A stretch of 64,000 nt of DNA from a virus (taxonomy: Duplodnaviria > Heunggongvirae > Uroviricota > Caudoviricetes): the IMG/VR virus record IMGVR_UViG_3300027733_000047; one strand, 5' to 3'. The notes below the pieces were generated by a model. That model worked only from the letters and a program-made list of their open reading frames with translations. It was not told the origin of the DNA and made no database searches. Each line of letters starts with the position of its first letter. The first letter of the stretch is position 1. The translations under genes were made by a program, and so were the position numbers. This document shows positions 5,224 through 63,465 of the stretch, piece by piece.

Positions 5224-5406
5224 ATGAAAAAATTATTATTACTTATTGCGATTGCTACCTTATCGGGTTGCTATGAATATCGTAAATTGCCCAATGTTAA
5301 ACGTGTTAATAAGGGTGATGTAAGAAAAGCAATGAAACATAGCACTTCAAATTATGAAATGCCAAGACAAAGCACTTATAACGTTTCTTATCATTATAAC
5401 CATTAA
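5224..5406 (+). CDS. putative small lipoprotein
   Basis: MKKLLLLIAIATLSGC lipobox-like N-terminus; plus strand. Confidence 0.35.
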   Translation: MKKLLLLIAIATLSGCYEYRKLPNVKRVNKGDVRKAMKHSTSNYEMPRQSTYNVSYHYNH

Positions 5407-5417
5407 ACCAAACTAAA

Positions 5418-5606
5418 ATGAAAATCAAAACAAAATTAAGCCCAGAAAATGAAATGCTATCTTTGTATTTATCAATTATTGTTAGCCTTATATTTTTCGC
5501 CTTGTGGGTGTTTACAGACATCAACCCAACAAAGTTATTTTTTAACTACATCGTGTTTTATTGTGTTGTTGTGCTGATTGGTTTCTTTTATCCTTTCAAA
5601 AAATAA
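5418..5606 (+). CDS. small membrane protein
   Basis: 62-aa hydrophobic ORF in tandem with 5224..5406. Confidence 0.35.
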   Translation: MKIKTKLSPENEMLSLYLSIIVSLIFFALWVFTDINPTKLFFNYIVFYCVVVLIGFFYPFKK

Positions 5607-5628
5607 TTTAAAAAAAGATTAAAAAAGA

Positions 5629-5728
5629 TTTGGTAGAATGAATAATTCTACCTATCTTTGATTTATCAAAGCGATAAGACGACGACAAGTCGGTAGGTAT
5701 ACTCCACGCTACGTGCTATTTTTTTTAT
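5629..5728 (+). ncRNA. mini-unit A (candidate sRNA)
   Basis: TTTGG(5629)-N19-TATCTTTG(5653-5660), then ...gacgacgacaagtcggtaggtatactccacgctacgtgctaTTTTTTTT. Confidence 0.4.
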
Positions 5729-5782
5729 CCAATATATAAAAAAATTGTCAGATATTACTCTGACAATCATATTATAGTTTAT

Positions 5783-6190
5783 TTAACTATAATAAATTTC
5801 CTCCAAATCCTTCAAAACAGCTTTGCCCTTATCCGTCCAAGATATACCTTTGAGCCATACAAAATGCTCAAGGTTTTGAGGGTTGCGCCAATCCATTCCT
5901 TCGCCCTCAAATAGCCATTTTAAAGCCGTTTTATAGTCAGATGCGCCCAATTGGATAGTACGTCCAATTAACAAATCAAAAGCCTTCAAATCGGCTTGTA
6001 AACGCAATTCCTCCTCGATGGCATTCTCACGGCAAACCTCGGAAAAACGAGCGAAATCGGCTTGTAACTGCTCGTCAGACATAGCCGAATAATCCAAGCC
6101 ACGAGGGCGAAAGCCGTATGCGTCCTTGTGAAAATCGCTATAAACTTGTAGCATTTCGTTTCTCTCGGCAAGTGATAAGGTAGTAGTCAT
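5783..6190 (-). CDS. hypothetical protein (GC-rich compositional outlier)
   Basis: 135-aa ORF; clearly higher GC than neighbours; promoter variant 6195-6260. Confidence 0.6.
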   Translation of the reverse strand: MTTTLSLAERNEMLQVYSDFHKDAYGFRPRGLDYSAMSDEQLQADFARFSEVCRENAIEEELRLQADLKAFDLLIGRTIQLGASDYKTALKWLFEGEGMDWRNPQNLEHFVWLKGISWTDKGKAVLKDLEEIYYS

Positions 6191-6293
6191 AATTTGAATG
6201 TTTAAATGTTAAAAGATAATGCAATTTAGCAAAATAAATTCAAAGCACCAAATTTATTTTCATATAATTTTTTTTATAATATATTGGTTTATA

Positions 6294-6412
6294 TCGCATA
6301 AAAAAAATATCGTGTAGGTTGGAGTATACTTCCCGATAGTGTATATCGTATTGCAACTTTGCTAAAGCAAAGATAAGGTAGTTTTTTCAAACTACCAAAT
6401 CTTTTGCAAAGT
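6294..6412 (-). ncRNA. mini-unit F (candidate sRNA)
   Basis: Minus strand TTTGG-N19-TTATCTTTG, then ctttagcaaagttgcaatacgatatacactatcgggaagtatactccaacctacacgataTTTTTTTT. Confidence 0.4.
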
Positions 6413-54302: not shown

Positions 54303-55433
54303 TTAATTAGAAAGTGGCATTTTTATCGCTGGATGACTTTGATATCCTTCAATAATAAAATCACCGATTTCATAATGTGCGATATCATCAACTTTACTAT
54401 CTAATATTTTTAACTTTGGTAATGGATATGGTTCTCTTGTTAATTGTTCTACAACACCTTCCTTTTGATTCAGGTAAATATGACAATCTCCCATATTTGC
54501 AATTAATTCATCAGGAACCATATTAACTTCTTTGGCTATGATTTCTAAAAGTAGAGCATAACTTGCGATGTTGAATGGTGTGCCTAACGGAACATCTTGA
54601 CTTCTAGTATTATACATTAAAGAGATTGCTCGGGTTGGTAGGTTATTATCAAGTAATTTATTCGTCCAAGCATTCACATCTCCAACTGATTTGAACTCGG
54701 GTACTACAATCTCACCTTTTTCTCTCTTTTGATTAAAAATTGAAACTCTCTCTTCAATACTTAACTCTCTCGTATAAAATTGAAAATCAGTATGACAGGG
54801 TGGAAGCGTCATTTTTTGTAACTCACCTACATTCCAAGCATTAACTTTATTGCGTCTAGAATCTGGGTCTATTTTAAGCAAATTGATTGAATTTGCGATT
54901 TGGTCTATGGTCTGTTTTTCCATATATCTCAACCCATTGCCATTAGGTATTTCCAAATCATGATTAACCCAACTTCTCCACTGTCTACCATAAATTGGTC
55001 CTAAATCTCCCCACTTCTTAGCAAACTCGTCATCGGTTTTGATTTTGTTGATGAACTCTTCTTGTGATAGAATTTTTATCTCTGAAAGATATTCTTGATA
55101 TCTCTCCTCAGTCGAAAATGATTTTTGTAATTTATTAGCGTGTTCCCACCCTTTCAAATACGCTTTATAAGCATCGCCATCCCATATATGACATCCATTA
55201 TCAACAAGGTATTTGATATTGGTATCACCACGTAAGAACCATAGTAGTTCTGTCACCATAGTTTTCCAAGCCATCTTCTTTGTTGTTAGTAATGGAAATC
55301 CTTCGCTCATTTTGTGGCGGATTTGTCTACCGAATACGCTTATGGTTCCTGTACCAGTGCGGTCTTTCTTTTCAACTCCATTATGGATTATATCCTGAAG
55401 TAGTCTTTGATATTGTTTGTCGATGTTATTCAT
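54303..55433 (-). CDS. thyA: thymidylate synthase (ThyA, long form with L. casei-type insertion)
   Basis: DRTGTGTISVFG, WGDLGPIYGRQWRSW, DPDSRR, LPPCH (catalytic Cys), PFNIASYALL; 376 aa, with the insert before WGDLG. Confidence 0.85.
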   Translation of the reverse strand: MNNIDKQYQRLLQDIIHNGVEKKDRTGTGTISVFGRQIRHKMSEGFPLLTTKKMAWKTMVTELLWFLRGDTNIKYLVDNGCHIWDGDAYKAYLKGWEHANKLQKSFSTEERYQEYLSEIKILSQEEFINKIKTDDEFAKKWGDLGPIYGRQWRSWVNHDLEIPNGNGLRYMEKQTIDQIANSINLLKIDPDSRRNKVNAWNVGELQKMTLPPCHTDFQFYTRELSIEERVSIFNQKREKGEIVVPEFKSVGDVNAWTNKLLDNNLPTRAISLMYNTRSQDVPLGTPFNIASYALLLEIIAKEVNMVPDELIANMGDCHIYLNQKEGVVEQLTREPYPLPKLKILDSKVDDIAHYEIGDFIIEGYQSHPAIKMPLSN

Positions 55434-57587: not shown

Positions 57588-57595
57588 GTTTATAA

Positions 57596-57805
57596 TTATT
57601 TTTTATCTTTTATAAATTCATTGTAAAGTAATTCCCAATCGTCAGATAAATAATCTTTTTCTCCGAGCCATTTAAAGACATCTTTGATTGTAAATCCATT
57701 AACGGATTTGGTCATTGTTTCTCTGTATGTTGGTGATACGTTTTTAAATTCATGACCACATTGACAAGGGGTTGACCAGCATTCTGAACAATCTGATAAT
57801 GCCAT
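57596..57805 (-). CDS. small Cys-rich zinc-finger-like protein
   Basis: CSECWSTPCQCGH. Confidence 0.45.
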   Translation of the reverse strand: MALSDCSECWSTPCQCGHEFKNVSPTYRETMTKSVNGFTIKDVFKWLGEKDYLSDDWELLYNEFIKDKK

Positions 57806-57806
57806 A

Positions 57807-58286
57807 TTAAAGTGTTTTTAATTCTTGTTTAACAAGTGTTAGTGCTTGACCTAATAGGTTTAAGCCAAACCAATATGATGGATTATCAATACCTTCGGCA
57901 TCTTCTGCCAACCCTATACCCCAGATGTTATCTAGTGGTGATGCTTCAACAAAGATTCTATCTTCGGTTTCTAACATTTGTTCTTTAAGGTCTTGGTTCT
58001 GACTAAACTTAGCCAAGTTGCCTTCGTAAACGATGGCCAAGCAATTCTTATCCCAAATAGCTTTGTCAAAGTTTCTAATCATTCTGCCGAATCTTTTTTG
58101 TTCTCTTGGGTTTTTTTCTTCCATGATTTGTTCAGCGATTTCCATGTCATTGAATAACAAGGCTTTCTGATACATCATGTATTGTTCGCATGAATTGTAT
58201 TCAATCCCATCGATTGTCATGTCGGCTTTATGCCATTGGGAATATATCCCATTCCAGAAGAATACGTATTTGTCTGTTATTTTCAT
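57807..58286 (-). CDS. NADAR-domain protein (YbiA-like)
   Basis: FFWNGIYSQW...IDGIEYNSCEQYMMYQKALLF...GNLAKFSQN...VEASPLDNIWGIG matches the NADAR/DUF1768 pattern. Confidence 0.7.
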   Translation of the reverse strand: MKITDKYVFFWNGIYSQWHKADMTIDGIEYNSCEQYMMYQKALLFNDMEIAEQIMEEKNPREQKRFGRMIRNFDKAIWDKNCLAIVYEGNLAKFSQNQDLKEQMLETEDRIFVEASPLDNIWGIGLAEDAEGIDNPSYWFGLNLLGQALTLVKQELKTL

Positions 58287-58290
58287 TTTA

Positions 58291-58632
58291 TTAATTTTTA
58301 TATTCTACATATGTTATTTTAATTCCTAAGTCTTTTGCGTAAGCTATTTCTTCGGCTACGCCCTTAGATTTGTCCCAACCTTCCATCATGTAAACAATCA
58401 TTTCATCACATCTATTTAAGAATGTCAGACAAAAGTTTTCCCAAAAAGGCCAATCGGTTGGCATGTCAGGTTGAAAGTTTACTGCGGTATGTCCGTATAG
58501 TATTGGGCTAAAAGCTACAACGCCATTGTTGATAAGTTCAGCTGTATACTTGGAAACCTTTTGATAGTTTTCTTCTCTAACATTGTCATCAGGATGACTA
58601 TATGGAGATGAAACAAAGATTAGTTTTCTCAC
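58291..58632 (-). CDS. DUF4406 / nucleoside 2-deoxyribosyltransferase-like protein
   Basis: IFVSSPYS... ...CDEMIVYMMEGWDKSKGVAEEIAYAKDLG pattern. Confidence 0.5.
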   Translation of the reverse strand: MRKLIFVSSPYSHPDDNVREENYQKVSKYTAELINNGVVAFSPILYGHTAVNFQPDMPTDWPFWENFCLTFLNRCDEMIVYMMEGWDKSKGVAEEIAYAKDLGIKITYVEYKN

Positions 58633-59408
58633 TTCAAACGATTTTTAATTTCAGTTAATGTTGTTTGGTTTTCAAAGTTACCATCTAGGTAAAGTGTTTT
58701 CAATTGACCTTTGGTTTCTGTTTCCCAAGTTACTTTATCGAATAGTTTTAATTCACCATCGTCATCATTTTTACCAACGTACAAAAGTCCTGTAGCTGAT
58801 TTCTTCATACCATCATCTGTAATTGGGTCTTTAAAGATTTCACGACCTTCAAAATTAACCTCAACATATGTTGCTTTCATTGCAAACCCGAATGTATCGC
58901 GAGTGTTGAATTGGTAAGTGAATGAACCAACACCCAACACGATATTTGTGCTTGCAAATCCTTTTGCTTCTAATCTAGAACAGATTTCTTCTGCTCTGTC
59001 GATTGTGATGCTGTCACCATAGATTGCACCGATGTGTGAATCTAGGACCTTGTAACCTTGTTCGTTAATGGTTCCACCGAATACATCCCAAAGCAATTCA
59101 ATAACTCCTTTGTAAGATGGGTCTTCGTCATCAACTAAACTTACCATTTTAGAACGGGTATTATATCCGCAAACAATATCAACAGGGTCGCCTGAATCAG
59201 GACGTATTACCAATTTACCATCACGAGCTAGGATTTCTTCTTTGAGAATAGGTAAATACTCTGTACACATTCTCCAGAGGTCAAATGTATCACTTACCAT
59301 ACTAAGTATTCCTGTAGGATATTTTGCTAATAACCCTCTAATACCGTTTAATTCATCAGTAACTGTTTTTGTTACAGTTCTTTTTCTAGTTTCAATAACT
59401 TTTTTCAT
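58629..59408 (-). CDS. nicotinamide phosphoribosyltransferase-family protein, C-terminal half (split gene)
   Basis: KLVIRPDSGDPVDIV, IVLGVGSFTYQ, EIFKDPITD align with the NAMPT C-terminal half (LIIRPDSGNPLD, IAFGSGGGLLQ, NVFKDPVAD). Confidence 0.75.
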   Translation of the reverse strand: MKKVIETRKRTVTKTVTDELNGIRGLLAKYPTGILSMVSDTFDLWRMCTEYLPILKEEILARDGKLVIRPDSGDPVDIVCGYNTRSKMVSLVDDEDPSYKGVIELLWDVFGGTINEQGYKVLDSHIGAIYGDSITIDRAEEICSRLEAKGFASTNIVLGVGSFTYQFNTRDTFGFAMKATYVEVNFEGREIFKDPITDDGMKKSATGLLYVGKNDDDGELKLFDKVTWETETKGQLKTLYLDGNFENQTTLTEIKNRLK

Positions 59409-60476
59409 TATTTAAGTTTTAATTATACTTTTATTTATTCCTTTCTAAAAAATCCATCACTTCAATTTCTTTTGGAACATCTATATTTTTGAACTGTTCT
59501 TTGAACTTTTCAATTAGATGGTCAGCAATTTCCATTGATTCTACCGTAAATTTTATTCTTGTAATATCATCTGGATAATTCTCAAAATTTTCATCTTCGT
59601 ATTTTAAATAATATACTTTCATTGTTTAGGTTGTTTAAGTTTAGAATACAAATATACGAACAATATTTGAAATAACAAAATTAATTTTAAAGGTTTGTAT
59701 TAATTTAATACATTTTTTAGTTTTTTTATGTCTTTTGTGTAGGTAGTAGATATTTATTAGTATGAACCACGAACAAATATACAATAAAATCATTAATAAC
59801 GCAAAATCTCAAATAAGGTCTAAAAAAGATTCTTATTTTGAAAGACATCACATTATCCCTAAAACCGCTGGTGGTGATAATTCAAAAGAAAATATCGTTC
59901 TACTAACAGCTAAAGAACACTTTGTTTGCCACCGTCTATTATGTTTCATATACCCTGAATCAAAATCCCTACGTTTTGCTTTTTGGGCGATGTGTAACCA
60001 ATTAAAAGGCGATGTTAAACGAGATTATAAAGTAACATCAAGAACATACGAAGATGCAAAACTAAAATTCAAAGAAGTTAATTCATCTTTACATAAAGGT
60101 AAAAAACTTTCAGACGAACATCTGTTAAAAATTACCAAAAGAATGTTATCTGATGATAATCCAATGAAAGGTAGAAAAGGTTCTGATAATCCATTATATA
60201 AAAAAGAACGAAGTGAATACACCAAATCTAAAATTTCAAATACCAAACTCTTAAACCCAACAAAAAATTGTAATTTTAAAGGCTTATATGTTACACCTTT
60301 AGGTAAGTTTTATACTTCGGCAGAAGCATCTAAAATACATAAATTAGATAGGTCTGTCATAATTGAAAGATGTAAAGTAAAGTCCGATAAAGTTATTACA
60401 AAAAAAGGTGTATTCTTTTCTAAAGATTTAACAATTAATGATATTGGTAAAACATATAAAGAGGTTGGATGGGATT
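59409..60476. mobile_element. homing-endonuclease-bearing insertion splitting the NAMPT-family gene
   Basis: About 1.07 kb separates the N- and C-terminal NAMPT halves; it contains the HNH ORF and one small ORF. Confidence 0.55.
59431..59622 (-). CDS. hypothetical protein inside the insertion that splits the NAMPT gene
   Basis: 63-aa ORF with promoter variant 59640-59690. Confidence 0.45.
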   Translation of the reverse strand: MKVYYLKYEDENFENYPDDITRIKFTVESMEIADHLIEKFKEQFKNIDVPKEIEVMDFLERNK

Positions 60477-60499
60477 TTATATCTCAACCTCAGAAATAA
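59762..60499 (+). CDS. HNH homing endonuclease
   Basis: FERHHIIPKTAGGDNSKENIVLLTAKEHFVCH HNH motif; plus strand between the two NAMPT halves. Confidence 0.7.
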   Translation: MNHEQIYNKIINNAKSQIRSKKDSYFERHHIIPKTAGGDNSKENIVLLTAKEHFVCHRLLCFIYPESKSLRFAFWAMCNQLKGDVKRDYKVTSRTYEDAKLKFKEVNSSLHKGKKLSDEHLLKITKRMLSDDNPMKGRKGSDNPLYKKERSEYTKSKISNTKLLNPTKNCNFKGLYVTPLGKFYTSAEASKIHKLDRSVIIERCKVKSDKVITKKGVFFSKDLTINDIGKTYKEVGWDFISQPQK

Positions 60500-61307
60500 T
60501 GTTTCCATTATCATCATAAGTTATCTCTACTTTATATTCTTCTTCAACTTCAACCTTTTTAAACTCGGTTATAGAGCACATTACCGAGTGTTCGGTTGCG
60601 TTTACGCTACCACCAACGAATCCTGTTTCACCATAATACTTTCTAGCACCGCCGATAGCTGGCAATGAATCGGTACCTGAGAATGATGTCAAGTGACCTA
60701 ACCCTGAGCTTATTGTTGCATCGATTGAATCCAATCCTCTCATTGAGAAATCATGTCCTTGCCAGTCGATAAACCATGCTCTTTCAGCATCAGTTTTTTC
60801 TTGCCACTTGGTTAATACCTTACGATATTGGTGAGCGATGGTAGCAGATGTTGTTGGTTTCCACAAAAGGTTTGAAATGATTGTTTCAAGGTAATTTGTT
60901 ATCCAATAGAAATCAGGATGTGTGTTGTGGATTGTAAGAATAGGAATTCTCATTGGTACTAGTGTTCCTTCTTCTAGTATCTTTACATGGATAGGTAAGT
61001 AACCCAAGTCATGTAGTTTTTCAAAGTGTGTAACATCGTAATCGGTACCTAAGTACATTGATAGTTCGCGTTTAATTTCACCACAAACTTCAGATTTCAT
61101 TCTATTAAAGAAATCATCTCTGAATGCTTCGTTGATTTGTTTCATTACCATTTGTTGACCAAATGATACAACTTTATCACAACCCTTTGGAGCGTATTTG
61201 TTGCTACGTGGTGTAAAGTTTGAATAAACTAATGTTGTACCTTGTGGATACATTTGATGGTGTGCTGTTTTATAACCATCGGTAAGTAAAAGTGGATTGA
61301 TTTTCAT
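60477..61307 (-). CDS. nicotinamide phosphoribosyltransferase-family protein, N-terminal half (split gene)
   Basis: INPLLLTDGYKTAHHQMYPQGT ... FSGTDSLPAIGGARKYYG ... ATEHSVM align with the NAMPT N-terminal half (NILLATDSYKVTHYKQYP ... FKGTDTVAGLALIKKYYG ... AAEHSTI); the C-terminal roughly 30 aa do not align. Confidence 0.75.
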   Translation of the reverse strand: MKINPLLLTDGYKTAHHQMYPQGTTLVYSNFTPRSNKYAPKGCDKVVSFGQQMVMKQINEAFRDDFFNRMKSEVCGEIKRELSMYLGTDYDVTHFEKLHDLGYLPIHVKILEEGTLVPMRIPILTIHNTHPDFYWITNYLETIISNLLWKPTTSATIAHQYRKVLTKWQEKTDAERAWFIDWQGHDFSMRGLDSIDATISSGLGHLTSFSGTDSLPAIGGARKYYGETGFVGGSVNATEHSVMCSITEFKKVEVEEEYKVEITYDDNGNIISEVEI

Positions 61308-61317
61308 AATTTTATTT

Positions 61318-62085
61318 TTAAAAATGTGTATAAATTGTTAAGTTAGATAATTCGTATTTATCGTATTTGCTATTGGTGCAATAGATTTTTTCGTATAGGT
61401 TTTCTAATTCTTTATTAGGGTTAGGCACAGTAATGTGACTTACTGCAAGATAAAGCTTACCAACATTTTTTGTTTTAAGTAGCTTGGCCAAGCCTACAAA
61501 TGTTCCACCGAACACACATAAGTCATCTAGGACTAGGATGTCAGCACCTTCAAAATCTTCTTTGTCGATGGTTTGTGTCAATTTGTGTGTTACCAAATCT
61601 CTAGACTTGCTAGCAGCATATACGCCACCTTCGTGATGTAATGTATCAGCAAGTTTGTTAATCCATTTGAATGACCCAGCGTCTGTTGATAAGAAGATGG
61701 GTGTTGATTTGATATCTTCCAATACAGAACCGATAAAGATAGAGTTATCTATAACCCTGCTGTTATTTAAACCCATTAGGGTTGAATCGCTATGTGGGTG
61801 ATATACATAAACCCTTGCAAAGTTGCATGAGTTGATAAAATCACATACCAATTTTAATTCAAACGATTGGTTGGTTTCAAATCTGCGGTCATGTTGTTGT
61901 TGAAACATGCAAGGGATTTTAAGAACAACATTTTGAATCTGATTAAAATCACATATGTCTTTAAGTGACTTGATAAAGAATAAATCTTCGTAGGTGTTGA
62001 TTCTTTCTGTGATTACTGGTTCTCTGAAATCGGTAATCTCTGCGTAAACGGTACCGTCTGGGTATTTGATTCGATTGTAAAGCAT
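61318..62085 (-). CDS. ribose-phosphate pyrophosphokinase-family protein (Prs / ADPR-PP-synthetase-like)
   Basis: KIPCMFQQQHDRR (compare YARQDRR), STDAGSFKWINKLA, ILVLDDLCVFGGT (compare DDIIDTAGT) in Prs order. Confidence 0.7.
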   Translation of the reverse strand: MLYNRIKYPDGTVYAEITDFREPVITERINTYEDLFFIKSLKDICDFNQIQNVVLKIPCMFQQQHDRRFETNQSFELKLVCDFINSCNFARVYVYHPHSDSTLMGLNNSRVIDNSIFIGSVLEDIKSTPIFLSTDAGSFKWINKLADTLHHEGGVYAASKSRDLVTHKLTQTIDKEDFEGADILVLDDLCVFGGTFVGLAKLLKTKNVGKLYLAVSHITVPNPNKELENLYEKIYCTNSKYDKYELSNLTIYTHF

Positions 62086-62107
62086 TTGTTTTATTTTTTA
62101 ATTGTTA

Positions 62108-62896
62108 TTATTTATATTGCCATATATATCCAATGGCTGTTTTTGCTCTTCCATTAAGACAATTTGATATGTTGGTCCCAGTTTTTAAATTAAGTTCTTT
62201 AATAATATCTTGAATACTATTCCATTCTTTAATTAAATTCATATTTTTATCATACTGAATTACTTTTTTAAATTTTAAATTAATGTATGGTTTAACACTT
62301 TTTAATTTTTTTGTTAAAAATAATTTTTTATTTTTCTTCAGATAGGCACCATTGTAAATTGAATTCCGTAGAGTACTTAATTTTATGTTGTAGTAATCAG
62401 AAGCAACTTTAATCGATTCCCATTCTTTAATGAAAAAACCCGTTTCATCGTATTCGTAACATTTTTGACATATTTGTTTTTTCCACATTGAAGAGTCTCG
62501 TTTCACACCTAATTTACTATCTGAAATTTTTTTTCTTGTTTCATATGAAAATTTTCGCAAAGTTTTATTATACTCACCAATTTTTCTTTTAGCCTCGGAT
62601 GTATGTTTTCGACCTTCACAATTTCCAGCAACTGGGCATACATTATATTGTGATGGTGTATTATCAATCCACCACTGCTCTCTCTCTATCAATTTATCCT
62701 TATTTTCAATATGTTCTAAAATAATAAATTCAAAATTTTCTTTACCGTATTTATTCCAAGCGTTTTGTAAAATAATTGAATGGTGTTCATTTTTTTTAAG
62801 TTTAGATAAATGAGAATTTTTTCTTTTATTAAATTTAATTGTTGACCCGACGTATCGTTTCATATTGATTTTATTAAGTATACAATATATTACCAT
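62108..62896 (-). CDS. GIY-YIG homing endonuclease
   Basis: VIYCILNKINMKRYVGST...R..SH and NAWNKYGKENFEFIILE (I-TevI-like). Confidence 0.7.
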   Translation of the reverse strand: MVIYCILNKINMKRYVGSTIKFNKRKNSHLSKLKKNEHHSIILQNAWNKYGKENFEFIILEHIENKDKLIEREQWWIDNTPSQYNVCPVAGNCEGRKHTSEAKRKIGEYNKTLRKFSYETRKKISDSKLGVKRDSSMWKKQICQKCYEYDETGFFIKEWESIKVASDYYNIKLSTLRNSIYNGAYLKKNKKLFLTKKLKSVKPYINLKFKKVIQYDKNMNLIKEWNSIQDIIKELNLKTGTNISNCLNGRAKTAIGYIWQYK

Positions 62897-62985
62897 GACA
62901 TTTTAGTTTATGTAATATAAATATACTAATTATCTAAAAAAAGTCTAATTTATTGATACCTGTGTCTTGTGTATATCATAATTTG

Positions 62986-63186: not shown

Positions 63187-63465
63187 TTAATTTTTTGATT
63201 TCCAAAACTGATACCACTTACGTACCTTAGGTGGATTACATTTGCTAAAAGGATTATGACCAAATGATACTTTATTTAAGTATTTTGACGTTAACATATT
63301 AATCATAATCTCATGGTACTCAATTGGGATATCTTTAAAATCGGCAGATACATCAACTTTTAAATCGATGGTACCATTTTCGGTTTGAAGCGTGAAATAT
63401 TCATTCATTCTAACCACTGTGGATGATGTTACATAAATAACATCAGCGTTTAAATTAATTTCCAT
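63187..63465 (-). CDS. hypothetical protein
   Basis: 92-aa ORF. Confidence 0.5.
   Translation of the reverse strand: MEINLNADVIYVTSSTVVRMNEYFTLQTENGTIDLKVDVSADFKDIPIEYHEIMINMLTSKYLNKVSFGHNPFSKCNPPKVRKWYQFWKSKN

Follow-up and report, generated by a model that had tools for sequence, protein, structure and literature searches.

Fragmentation of a putative phage Namat gene by a MobE-like HNH endonuclease cassette that contributes oppositely charged extensions to the two fragments

The DNA analyzed here, a 64,000-nucleotide stretch of the IMG/VR virus record IMGVR_UViG_3300027733_000047 (class Caudoviricetes; hereafter the window), carries on its minus strand two halves of one gene of the NAMPT family. 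In the list of open reading frames (ORFs), the upstream half, or N fragment, occupies 60477–61307 (276 aa) and the downstream half, or C fragment, 58629–59408 (259 aa), and a gene for an HNH homing endonuclease lies between them on the opposite strand. A reading of the window from its letters and ORFs (the sequence-only reading) had attributed the split to a homing endonuclease with a free-standing gene, by analogy with nrdA and gp43 in T4-like phages, and had supposed an enzyme assembled from two polypeptides. The split is real, and its interpretation as endonuclease-driven fragmentation is supported by an intact allele in a near-identical genome, by the similarity of the HNH protein to MobE and by purifying selection on the parts. 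In what follows, L001, L010 and similar names denote metagenomic contigs, and P0001 and P0002 intact homologous proteins; Namat is the NAMPT-like enzyme of the NARP1 NAD+-reconstitution pathway, to which the split gene probably belongs, and the inserted DNA is called the cassette. Read along the minus strand, the locus is composed as follows.

60573–61307, minus strand: homologous body of the N fragment (codons 1–245), with the NAMPT_N domain, the β1–β2 loop and the catalytic His240; DNA identity to intact L001 allele 97%, protein identity to P0002 98%
60477–60572, minus strand: acidic C-terminal tail of the N fragment, ITEFKKVEVEEEYKVEITYDDNGNIISEVEI (31 codons, net charge −7), and its stop codon; encoded by the cassette; the final 23 nt overlap the HNH gene at its 3′ end, in antisense
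59762–60499, plus strand: gene for a MobE-like HNH homing endonuclease (245 aa; Pfam and PHROG matches), antisense to the putative Namat operon
59711–59761, minus strand: ancestral leader of the C fragment, with the ..CTACTACCTACACAAA.. motif and a vestigial ATG, aligned by eye with the leaders of L104, L010 and L105
59406–59710, minus strand: probable nested secondary insertion of ~305 bp with a 63-aa ORF (59431–59622), seen in the window lineage only
59361–59408, minus strand: basic head at the N terminus of the C fragment, MKKVIETRKRTVTKTV (net charge +5), including the start codon; encoded by the cassette
59229–59360, minus strand: proximal C fragment of the 'split type', a putative co-conversion tract (about codons 17–60) with the signature SDTFDLWRMCTEY at 59256–59294
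58629–59228, minus strand: distal body of the C fragment, of the resident type, with the catalytic Arg of IRPDSG and the GVGSFTYQF segment; DNA identity to L001 85–97%

Both halves match the PHROG 448 profile (nicotinamide phosphoribosyltransferase, 500 positions), the N fragment over positions 12–272 (E 2e-95) and the C fragment over positions 262–494 (E 2e-89), and the colinearity with NAMPT noticed from the sequence alone is thereby borne out. NAMPT_N and the start of NAPRTase fall on the N fragment and the remaining NAPRTase on the C fragment, with Pfam matches above the curated cut-offs, so that the type II phosphoribosyltransferase layout (PF18127 + PF04095) is full-length and colinear, but only across two ORFs. 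With the concatenated halves as query, thousands of intact homologues of ~490 aa were retrieved, the best of which was the 493-aa P0001 (83% identical). At the break, the aligned intact homologues read ...NATEHSVMC(S/A)GGKDDEVGTFRRLLQTYPTGILS.... The N fragment of the window can be aligned up to ...NATEHSVMCS (S245) and then continues into the 31-aa tail and a stop, in agreement with the 245 aligned and about 30 extra residues counted earlier. The C fragment begins with the 16-aa unaligned head, on which the earlier account was silent, and family homology resumes at T17 (TDELNGIRGLLAKYPTGILS); about three residues of the intact protein (GGK) are missing at the break. The break lies five codons past the catalytic His240 (..NATEHSV..), a residue that is invariant in 42 sequences and corresponds by alignment to H245 of PDB 9w5x (ATEHSV motif). 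We take it to be equivalent to H247 of human NAMPT. The catalytic residues are divided between the two products, the His being on the N fragment and the catalytic Arg of IRPDSG on the C fragment.

Besides the HNH ORF, no plus-strand ORF of the window reaches 200 aa, and the HNH assignment made by the sequence-only reading was upheld by profile searches (PF01844 HNH, 23.4 bits against a cut-off of 21.4; PHROG 655 homing endonuclease, E 8e-43), a NUMOD3 match of 19.0 bits staying just under its cut-off of 20.4. Over its first 166 aa, the protein shares ~42% identity with T4 MobE; its identity to the endonucleases that disrupt the DNA polymerase genes of Dickeya and Salmonella phages is ~30%. Residues H29, H30, N44, H53 and H57 are invariant among 38 HNH homologues, and the ratio of nonsynonymous to synonymous substitution rates (dN/dS) is 0.10–0.42 between lineages. 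When viral contigs were scanned with the entire protein, most of the matches were generic Mob-like endonucleases; its C-terminal domain made a more specific query. A related HNH gene (53% identity at the protein level) lies on L011 between adps and an intact namat. In T4, mobE is located between nrdA and nrdB, and the intergenic position on L011, beside an intact gene, thus mirrors the intergenic mobE of T4 as opposed to the intragenic mobE of Aeh1.

Comparison with relatives that lack the insertion had been suggested as a check, and such relatives were found: P0001 is encoded by an intact gene on contigs L001–L003, in the same gene order as in the window (Prs-like, NAMPT-like, DUF1937, NADAR and onward) and between near-identical flanks. 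By blastn, positions 63300–62955 of the window are 99.7% identical to L001, positions 62064–60573 97% and positions 59333–57594 90%, and 59334–60572 (1239 bp) replaces 36 bp of L001; at the protein level, the foreign DNA spans 59361–60572 (1212 bp) and replaces GGK. The insertion postulated earlier is therefore present, but the 1.07 kb given for it is the distance between the ORFs only, the foreign DNA amounting to ~1.2 kb relative to L001. The window and L001 show a presence/absence polymorphism at one site in genomes that are otherwise near-identical. The insertion region is AT-richer than its surroundings. On the N side, identity to L001 is 93–100% right up to the junction, whereas on the C side it is 72–77% over the first 120 bp and rises to 100% ~750 bp away. 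Terminal inverted or direct repeats and a target-site duplication were sought at the cassette ends and none was found; a transposon-like insertion was rejected because the ends bear no terminal repeats. A near-identity search of the phage collection (megablast) gave no match and a distant search remote NAMPT matches only, so that no cultured relative was found in that collection.

As had been stated from the sequence alone, each half has its own start: both ORFs are intact, and their starts lie in the A-rich context without a Shine-Dalgarno sequence that is typical of the genes of this phage (56989–63465), the leader of the C fragment being alike. Such leaders hint at a host with Shine-Dalgarno-independent initiation. 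The leader adjoining the HNH start, with the ..CTACTACCTACACAAA.. motif, is one that the window shares with L104 and L010. The window version closes with a vestigial ATG (59711–59713), after which now come Tyr and a stop. Between this ancestral leader and ATG and the present start of the C fragment, a segment of ~305 bp has been inserted that was not found in any other split lineage examined. Its 63-aa ORF has six distant or short homologues among 1.8 billion representative proteins and no Pfam or PHROG match, and appears to be a nested secondary insertion specific to the window lineage. The ORF stands as predicted by the sequence-only reading, but the promoter ascribed to it could not be supported, since promoter-like matches in the region number 32 against 27 ± 5 expected from shuffled sequence. 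The T4 late motif TATAAATA was not enriched (14 found, 16 expected), no terminator prediction exceeded chance, and the one weak plus-strand hairpin at the cassette edge (60574–60593) is probably a chance occurrence.

The exact N fragment of the window was found on 10 contigs from several freshwater samples, in the same arrangement throughout, and the layout of N fragment, antisense HNH gene and C fragment is repeated in nine or more diverged lineages from metagenomes. The HNH proteins of the split loci are identical to that of the window at 84% (L103/L104), 79% (L010), 64% (L105), 61% (L106), 58% (L094/L095/L096/L101), 56% (L015), 54–55% (L097/L098) and 47% (L012) of positions. In the split loci for which both gene ends were read (L006–L009, L094, L103–L106), the stop of the N fragment and the 3′ end of the HNH gene overlap in antisense by 23 nt, with the same geometry. 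A census of the tails with a short protein query returned 1 match; a degenerate DNA pattern returned 50 loci, with Namat on only the two contigs already known.

The homologous body of the window N fragment is 98% identical to the intact P0002, but its identity to other split alleles does not exceed 82%, and for nearly every split allele there is some intact relative as close as, or closer than, the nearest other split allele. L106 has a Namat body of only 49% identity, yet its tail and head are homologous and its HNH protein retains the identity given above. The sequence SDTWDLW[KR]VCTEH occurs in all 110 intact homologues with a match at this position, whereas split alleles read SDTFD[LI]WRM[CL]TEY, with the exception of L106, which has the intact-type signature. 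The first 60 residues of the window C fragment are 88% identical to L104 and the remainder 70%, L001 being closest from about codon 61. The tract flanking the insertion is asymmetric: the C side is donor-like for about 60 codons and then resident-like, and the N side is resident-like to the junction. Taken together, the identities of the N body and the L104-like proximal C fragment indicate that the cassette is mobile and was acquired by recombination, and the donor-like tract beside the insertion is the co-conversion pattern expected of homing. In the simplest reading, an L104-like donor would have passed the cassette, and with it the ~130 bp that flank it downstream, to an L001-like phage.

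The tail is missing from more than 110 intact homologues, and tail and head occur only in split alleles. In eight lineages the tail conforms to [IL]TEF..h.hEEEY.VEh.YDD.GNhISE.Eh (h, hydrophobic; net charge −7 to −13), and the peptide YDDNGNIISEVEI is part of this acidic tail; the head conforms to MKKh.E.R.R.hKK.V (net charge +5 to +8). Between lineages, the proportions of synonymous (pS) and nonsynonymous (pN) differences are 0.65 and 0.18 for the tail and 0.62 and 0.25 for the head, and since pN is well below pS, both extensions evolve as constrained protein. In L012 the extensions are unrelated in sequence but have the same polarity, an acidic tail and a basic head (charges counted by hand).

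These data bear on whether the interruption could be removed, by a group I or group II intron with an antisense endonuclease or by trans-splicing of a split intein, either of which would restore a single-chain enzyme. Introns and inteins often carry homing endonucleases, fractured genes with split inteins around a free-standing endonuclease are known (PMC2677866), and the residue right after the head is Thr. Nevertheless, tail and head evolve as translated protein, and the stop and start codons at the break are conserved in place. A cmscan search of 58400–61500 against Rfam, on both strands and at E ≤ 10, matched no intron family and returned one chance snoRNA match only, which agrees with the earlier argument that the insertion is not a self-splicing intron. 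No Hint or intein match was obtained in Pfam; the Thr is not preceded by a terminal His-Asn, nor is the first tail position a Cys or Ser, the tail starting with I/L-T-E-F and the head ending with K-T-V/K-K-V. A split intein was rejected on these grounds and because extensions of 31 and 16 aa are much too small to make up a Hint fold and do not show its motifs. Removal of the interruption by splicing of either kind is very unlikely.

A second alternative is that the insertion killed the gene and that the ORFs are the decaying halves of a pseudogene, leaving the phage without Namat or reliant on its host. The break does adjoin the catalytic His, and the C fragment of L010 contains frameshifts. 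However, both ORFs are intact and colinear in the nine or more lineages, in which the synonymous sites of split alleles are saturated and pN is ~0.15–0.18 for both fragments; in pairs that are not saturated, dN/dS is 0.07 for the N fragment, 0.12 for the C fragment and 0.10–0.13 for the HNH gene. The tail and head, which are specific to the cassette, are under purifying selection with their charge kept, and the exact split allele of the window is present on 10 contigs from several samples. An apparent truncation of the N fragment in L103 proved to be a scaffold gap, a run of N, and decay of that allele was rejected. We regard the death of the gene as improbable.

A third alternative grants an active two-piece enzyme but lets it assemble solely by way of the native intramolecular interface, in which case the tail and head would be passengers that are conserved for the 3′ untranslated region or terminator of the HNH gene, for the antisense overlap or for translation-initiation signals. 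The tail overlaps the HNH ORF by seven codons, the A/K-rich composition of the head could stem from the A-rich regions in which this phage initiates translation, and AlphaFold gave no confident tail–head contact. Against this, conservation is at the amino-acid level over the 24 tail codons outside the overlap, with many synonymous changes, and charge polarity is kept in every lineage, including L012 with its unrelated extensions. Moreover, in Aeh1 the oppositely charged, insertion-derived tails that NrdA-a and NrdA-b carry are indispensable for activity (PMC3045599). Passenger extensions are thus unlikely, although we would give them a slightly better chance than a dead gene.

Which enzyme was split can be judged from similarity and gene neighborhood. 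The best PDB matches were 9w5x and 9w5w (E 4e-75 for the N fragment and 1e-71 for the C fragment), and human NAMPT was more distant (8e-33 and 2e-19). The selectivity clamp of the SpbetaL1 Namat comprises residues F392 and Y396 (PMC12774641), and positions 392 and 396 of the 9w5x chain are F and Y; by this numbering, 9w5x is presumably the SpbetaL1 Namat. The GVGSFTYQF segment of the window aligns with GIGSFTYQY of 9w5x, placing F and F at the clamp positions, where Xanthomonas and human NAMPT have GGALLQK. For the stacking residue of the β1–β2 loop, the alignment to K37/Y38 was not decisive. The C fragment also contains, after ..IRPDSGDPVDI.CG., a hypervariable and indel-rich surface segment (window ~59110–59170, C-fragment codons ~80–100); it recurs at the same position in L012, L015, L094, L104 and L106 and ranges, among intact and split alleles alike, from a few residues up to insertions of ~50–80 aa.

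The following features lie upstream of the N fragment.

61318–62085, minus strand: Prs-like gene, probable Adps (PHROG 619)
62065–62954, minus strand: second independent homing-endonuclease insertion, with a GIY-YIG ORF (62108–62896), upstream of the Adps-like gene and missing from L001

The Prs-like ORF stops 10 bp before the N fragment begins and matches PHROG 619 (ribose-phosphate pyrophosphokinase, E 1e-43) and, distantly, Prs structures in PDB. In the NARP1 study, 97% of Adps-clade genes adjoined a Namat homologue (Osterman et al., bioRxiv 10.1101/2024.02.11.579819). From the Adps-like neighbor, the greater similarity to 9w5x and 9w5w than to human NAMPT and the aromatic residues of the clamp helix, we conclude with moderate confidence that the split gene encodes the Namat of a NARP1 pathway rather than a classical NAMPT. 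Directly downstream lie a DUF1937/deoxyribosyltransferase-like gene (58291–58632) and a NADAR gene (57807–58286). The Adps-like gene, the split Namat, DUF1937 and NADAR look like an NAD/ADP-ribose counter-defense cluster. A 153-aa gene of the Nuc_deoxyri_tr2 family (nucleoside 2-deoxyribosyltransferase-like) is present in L001 (8518–8963) and L004 and missing from the window (~57594–57606) and from L006–L009, a further presence/absence polymorphism of this cluster.

Combining these results, we think it likely that a MobE-like HNH cassette split the Namat gene and that the fragments are translated separately and reassemble into an active enzyme with the help of their charged extensions. A cassette built around the HNH gene would have recombined into the Namat gene of a large freshwater phage, supplying the upstream fragment with an acidic 31-codon tail and a stop codon, bringing the endonuclease gene on the opposite strand, and giving the downstream fragment an A-rich leader, a start codon and a basic 16-codon head. 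The N and C fragments would then be made separately and come together in a composite active site, to which the N fragment would contribute the catalytic His and the β1–β2 loop, and the C fragment the Arg of IRPDSG and the aromatic selectivity-clamp helix. The oppositely charged extensions would aid this assembly, and the insertion would in consequence be phenotypically neutral. In co-infections, the endonuclease presumably cuts intact alleles, the repair of which would copy the cassette and some downstream flank into them; its expected target is the intact allele near the region coding for ATEHSVMC / SDTWDLWKVCTEH, and the split allele should be resistant.

Several observations weigh against reassembly into an active Namat. 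Some of the divergence among split alleles may predate the insertions, when the host genes were still intact, and dN/dS of the fragment bodies is for that reason weaker evidence than the conservation of tail and head. The latter, in turn, comes from short stretches (31 and 16 codons), and the last 7 tail codons, which overlap the HNH ORF, could be constrained by it. The C fragment of L010 (3160–3960) has two compensating frameshifts (frame 2, 0, 2), which reflect either a sequencing or assembly error or the early decay of one split allele. A promoter for the C fragment could not be demonstrated, the sigma-70-like matches being the 32 against 27 ± 5 given above. An AlphaFold2 prediction of the fused chain, made with a shallow alignment, was poor (mean predicted local distance difference test score 60) and formed only a low-confidence β-hairpin at the invariant YDDNGN turn. 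A single-sequence prediction of a tail-plus-head mini-construct, which we judged uninformative, gave the same hairpin, with the head modeled as a helix that runs on into the next Namat helix. Neither predicted structure, fused chain or mini-construct, showed tail–head pairing. Finally, the choice of Namat over NAMPT is a comparative one, stemming from the neighboring gene, PDB similarity and presumed clamp residues.

A broader and more tentative proposal, whose chances we put a little short of even, is that the cassette is a portable 'split-and-splint' module, in which the endonuclease would travel with a pair of charge-complementary extensions and with the stop, leader and start that they need, and could enter the active-site core of Namat genes up to 50% diverged without destroying the enzyme. 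If true, this would be a third route, via protein assembly, by which selfish elements neutralize their insertion, beside self-splicing introns and inteins, and the module would now be spreading through the anti-defense (NARP1) loci of freshwater jumbo phages. All this material is metagenomic and of freshwater origin, and one contig with an HNH gene 99% identical to that of the window is 320 kb long, which suggests a jumbo phage.

The GIY-YIG/NUMOD endonuclease gene upstream of the Adps-like gene is cleanly inserted, and with the HNH cassette makes two independent endonuclease insertions in this NARP1-like locus. In relatives of the window, LAGLIDADG endonuclease genes (L004/L005, 5044–5958; L103/L104, ~5400–6400) lie between the Adps-like gene and an intact Namat or upstream of the Prs-like gene. 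The occurrence of HNH, GIY-YIG and LAGLIDADG elements at the same small locus in different phages points to a homing hot spot around an anti-defense operon, and these elements may drive the exchange of anti-defense alleles between co-infecting phages. Elsewhere in the window, a 376-aa thymidylate synthase ORF (54303–55433) covers positions 29–307 of a 335-position PHROG profile and seemingly has ~100 extra residues; on L103, a 276-aa ThyA gene adjoins an I-TevI-like GIY-YIG endonuclease gene.

The locus would add a second enzyme family to the genes fragmented by a homing endonuclease and rescued through their tails. It also offers a natural comparative series, consisting of intact and split alleles in near-identical genomes, diverged alleles with homologous tails, at least one allele with non-homologous tails of the same polarity, and a relative with an intergenic HNH gene. 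This series bears on whether tails are part of the mobile element, on the extent of co-converted flank, and on whether a NAMPT-fold enzyme could function in two pieces, with its active site and selectivity clamp both composite. Since annotation pipelines call two truncated 'NAMPT' genes here, surveys of NARP1 may miss such loci. A literature search turned up no earlier description of a NAMPT or Namat in two pieces.

Among known systems, the locus is best described as one of the 'genes-in-pieces' type, its closest precedent being the ribonucleotide reductase of Aeromonas phage Aeh1 (nrdA-a/mobE/nrdA-b; Friedrich et al. 2007; Crona et al. 2011, PMC3045599). To our knowledge, Aeh1 is the single instance in the literature, and the only studied case, of tail-mediated rescue after fragmentation by an endonuclease. 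In both loci, a free-standing HNH endonuclease gene of the MobE type sits inside an enzyme gene near active-site residues, the break falls within an α/β-barrel-type catalytic domain, two independently translated fragments share out the active-site residues, and short cassette-derived C- and N-terminal tails bear opposite charges. Both also have relatives in which the endonuclease gene is intergenic beside an intact gene (T4 mobE; here L011). The two differ in that the present gene belongs to the Namat/NAMPT family, associated with NAD+ reconstitution and anti-defense rather than with deoxynucleoside triphosphate synthesis; in that the endonuclease gene is antisense here, with a conserved 23-nt tail-to-tail overlap; in that the polarity is reversed (acidic tail, basic head); and in the nested extra ORF. 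Here, moreover, a cassette with homologous tails is found in many diverged host genes, with intact and split alleles in near-identical genomes. Two-piece function has been demonstrated for Aeh1 and is predicted here. The authors of the Aeh1 work predicted that similar tails, hard to recognize, would exist in other fragmented genes (PMC3045599).

Fragmentation associated with Mob-type endonucleases is shared with the split topoisomerase of T4 (gene 39/mobA/gene 60) and with the split gp43 DNA polymerase genes of T4-like phages, whose fragments also have tail-like extensions with a similar charge distribution (PMC3045599). Those cases involve other enzymes, gene 60 also uses translational bypassing, and no role for the tails has been demonstrated there. 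The order of N part, endonuclease gene and C part is likewise that of the genes fractured by split inteins (Dassa et al. 2009, PMC2677866), for which electrostatic complementarity of the extensions was proposed (PMC2677866); unlike those, the extensions described here have neither the length of a Hint fold nor the motifs of an intein, and protein splicing is not expected. With the NARP1 system of Adps and Namat (10.1101/2024.02.11.579819, PMC12774641), the locus shares a Prs-like gene adjoining a NAMPT-like gene, the catalytic His, the Arg of IRPDSG and aromatic residues (F, F) at the presumed clamp positions. The Namat proteins described so far are all single chains, whereas the clamp and the catalytic core of the enzyme encoded here would each require two polypeptides.

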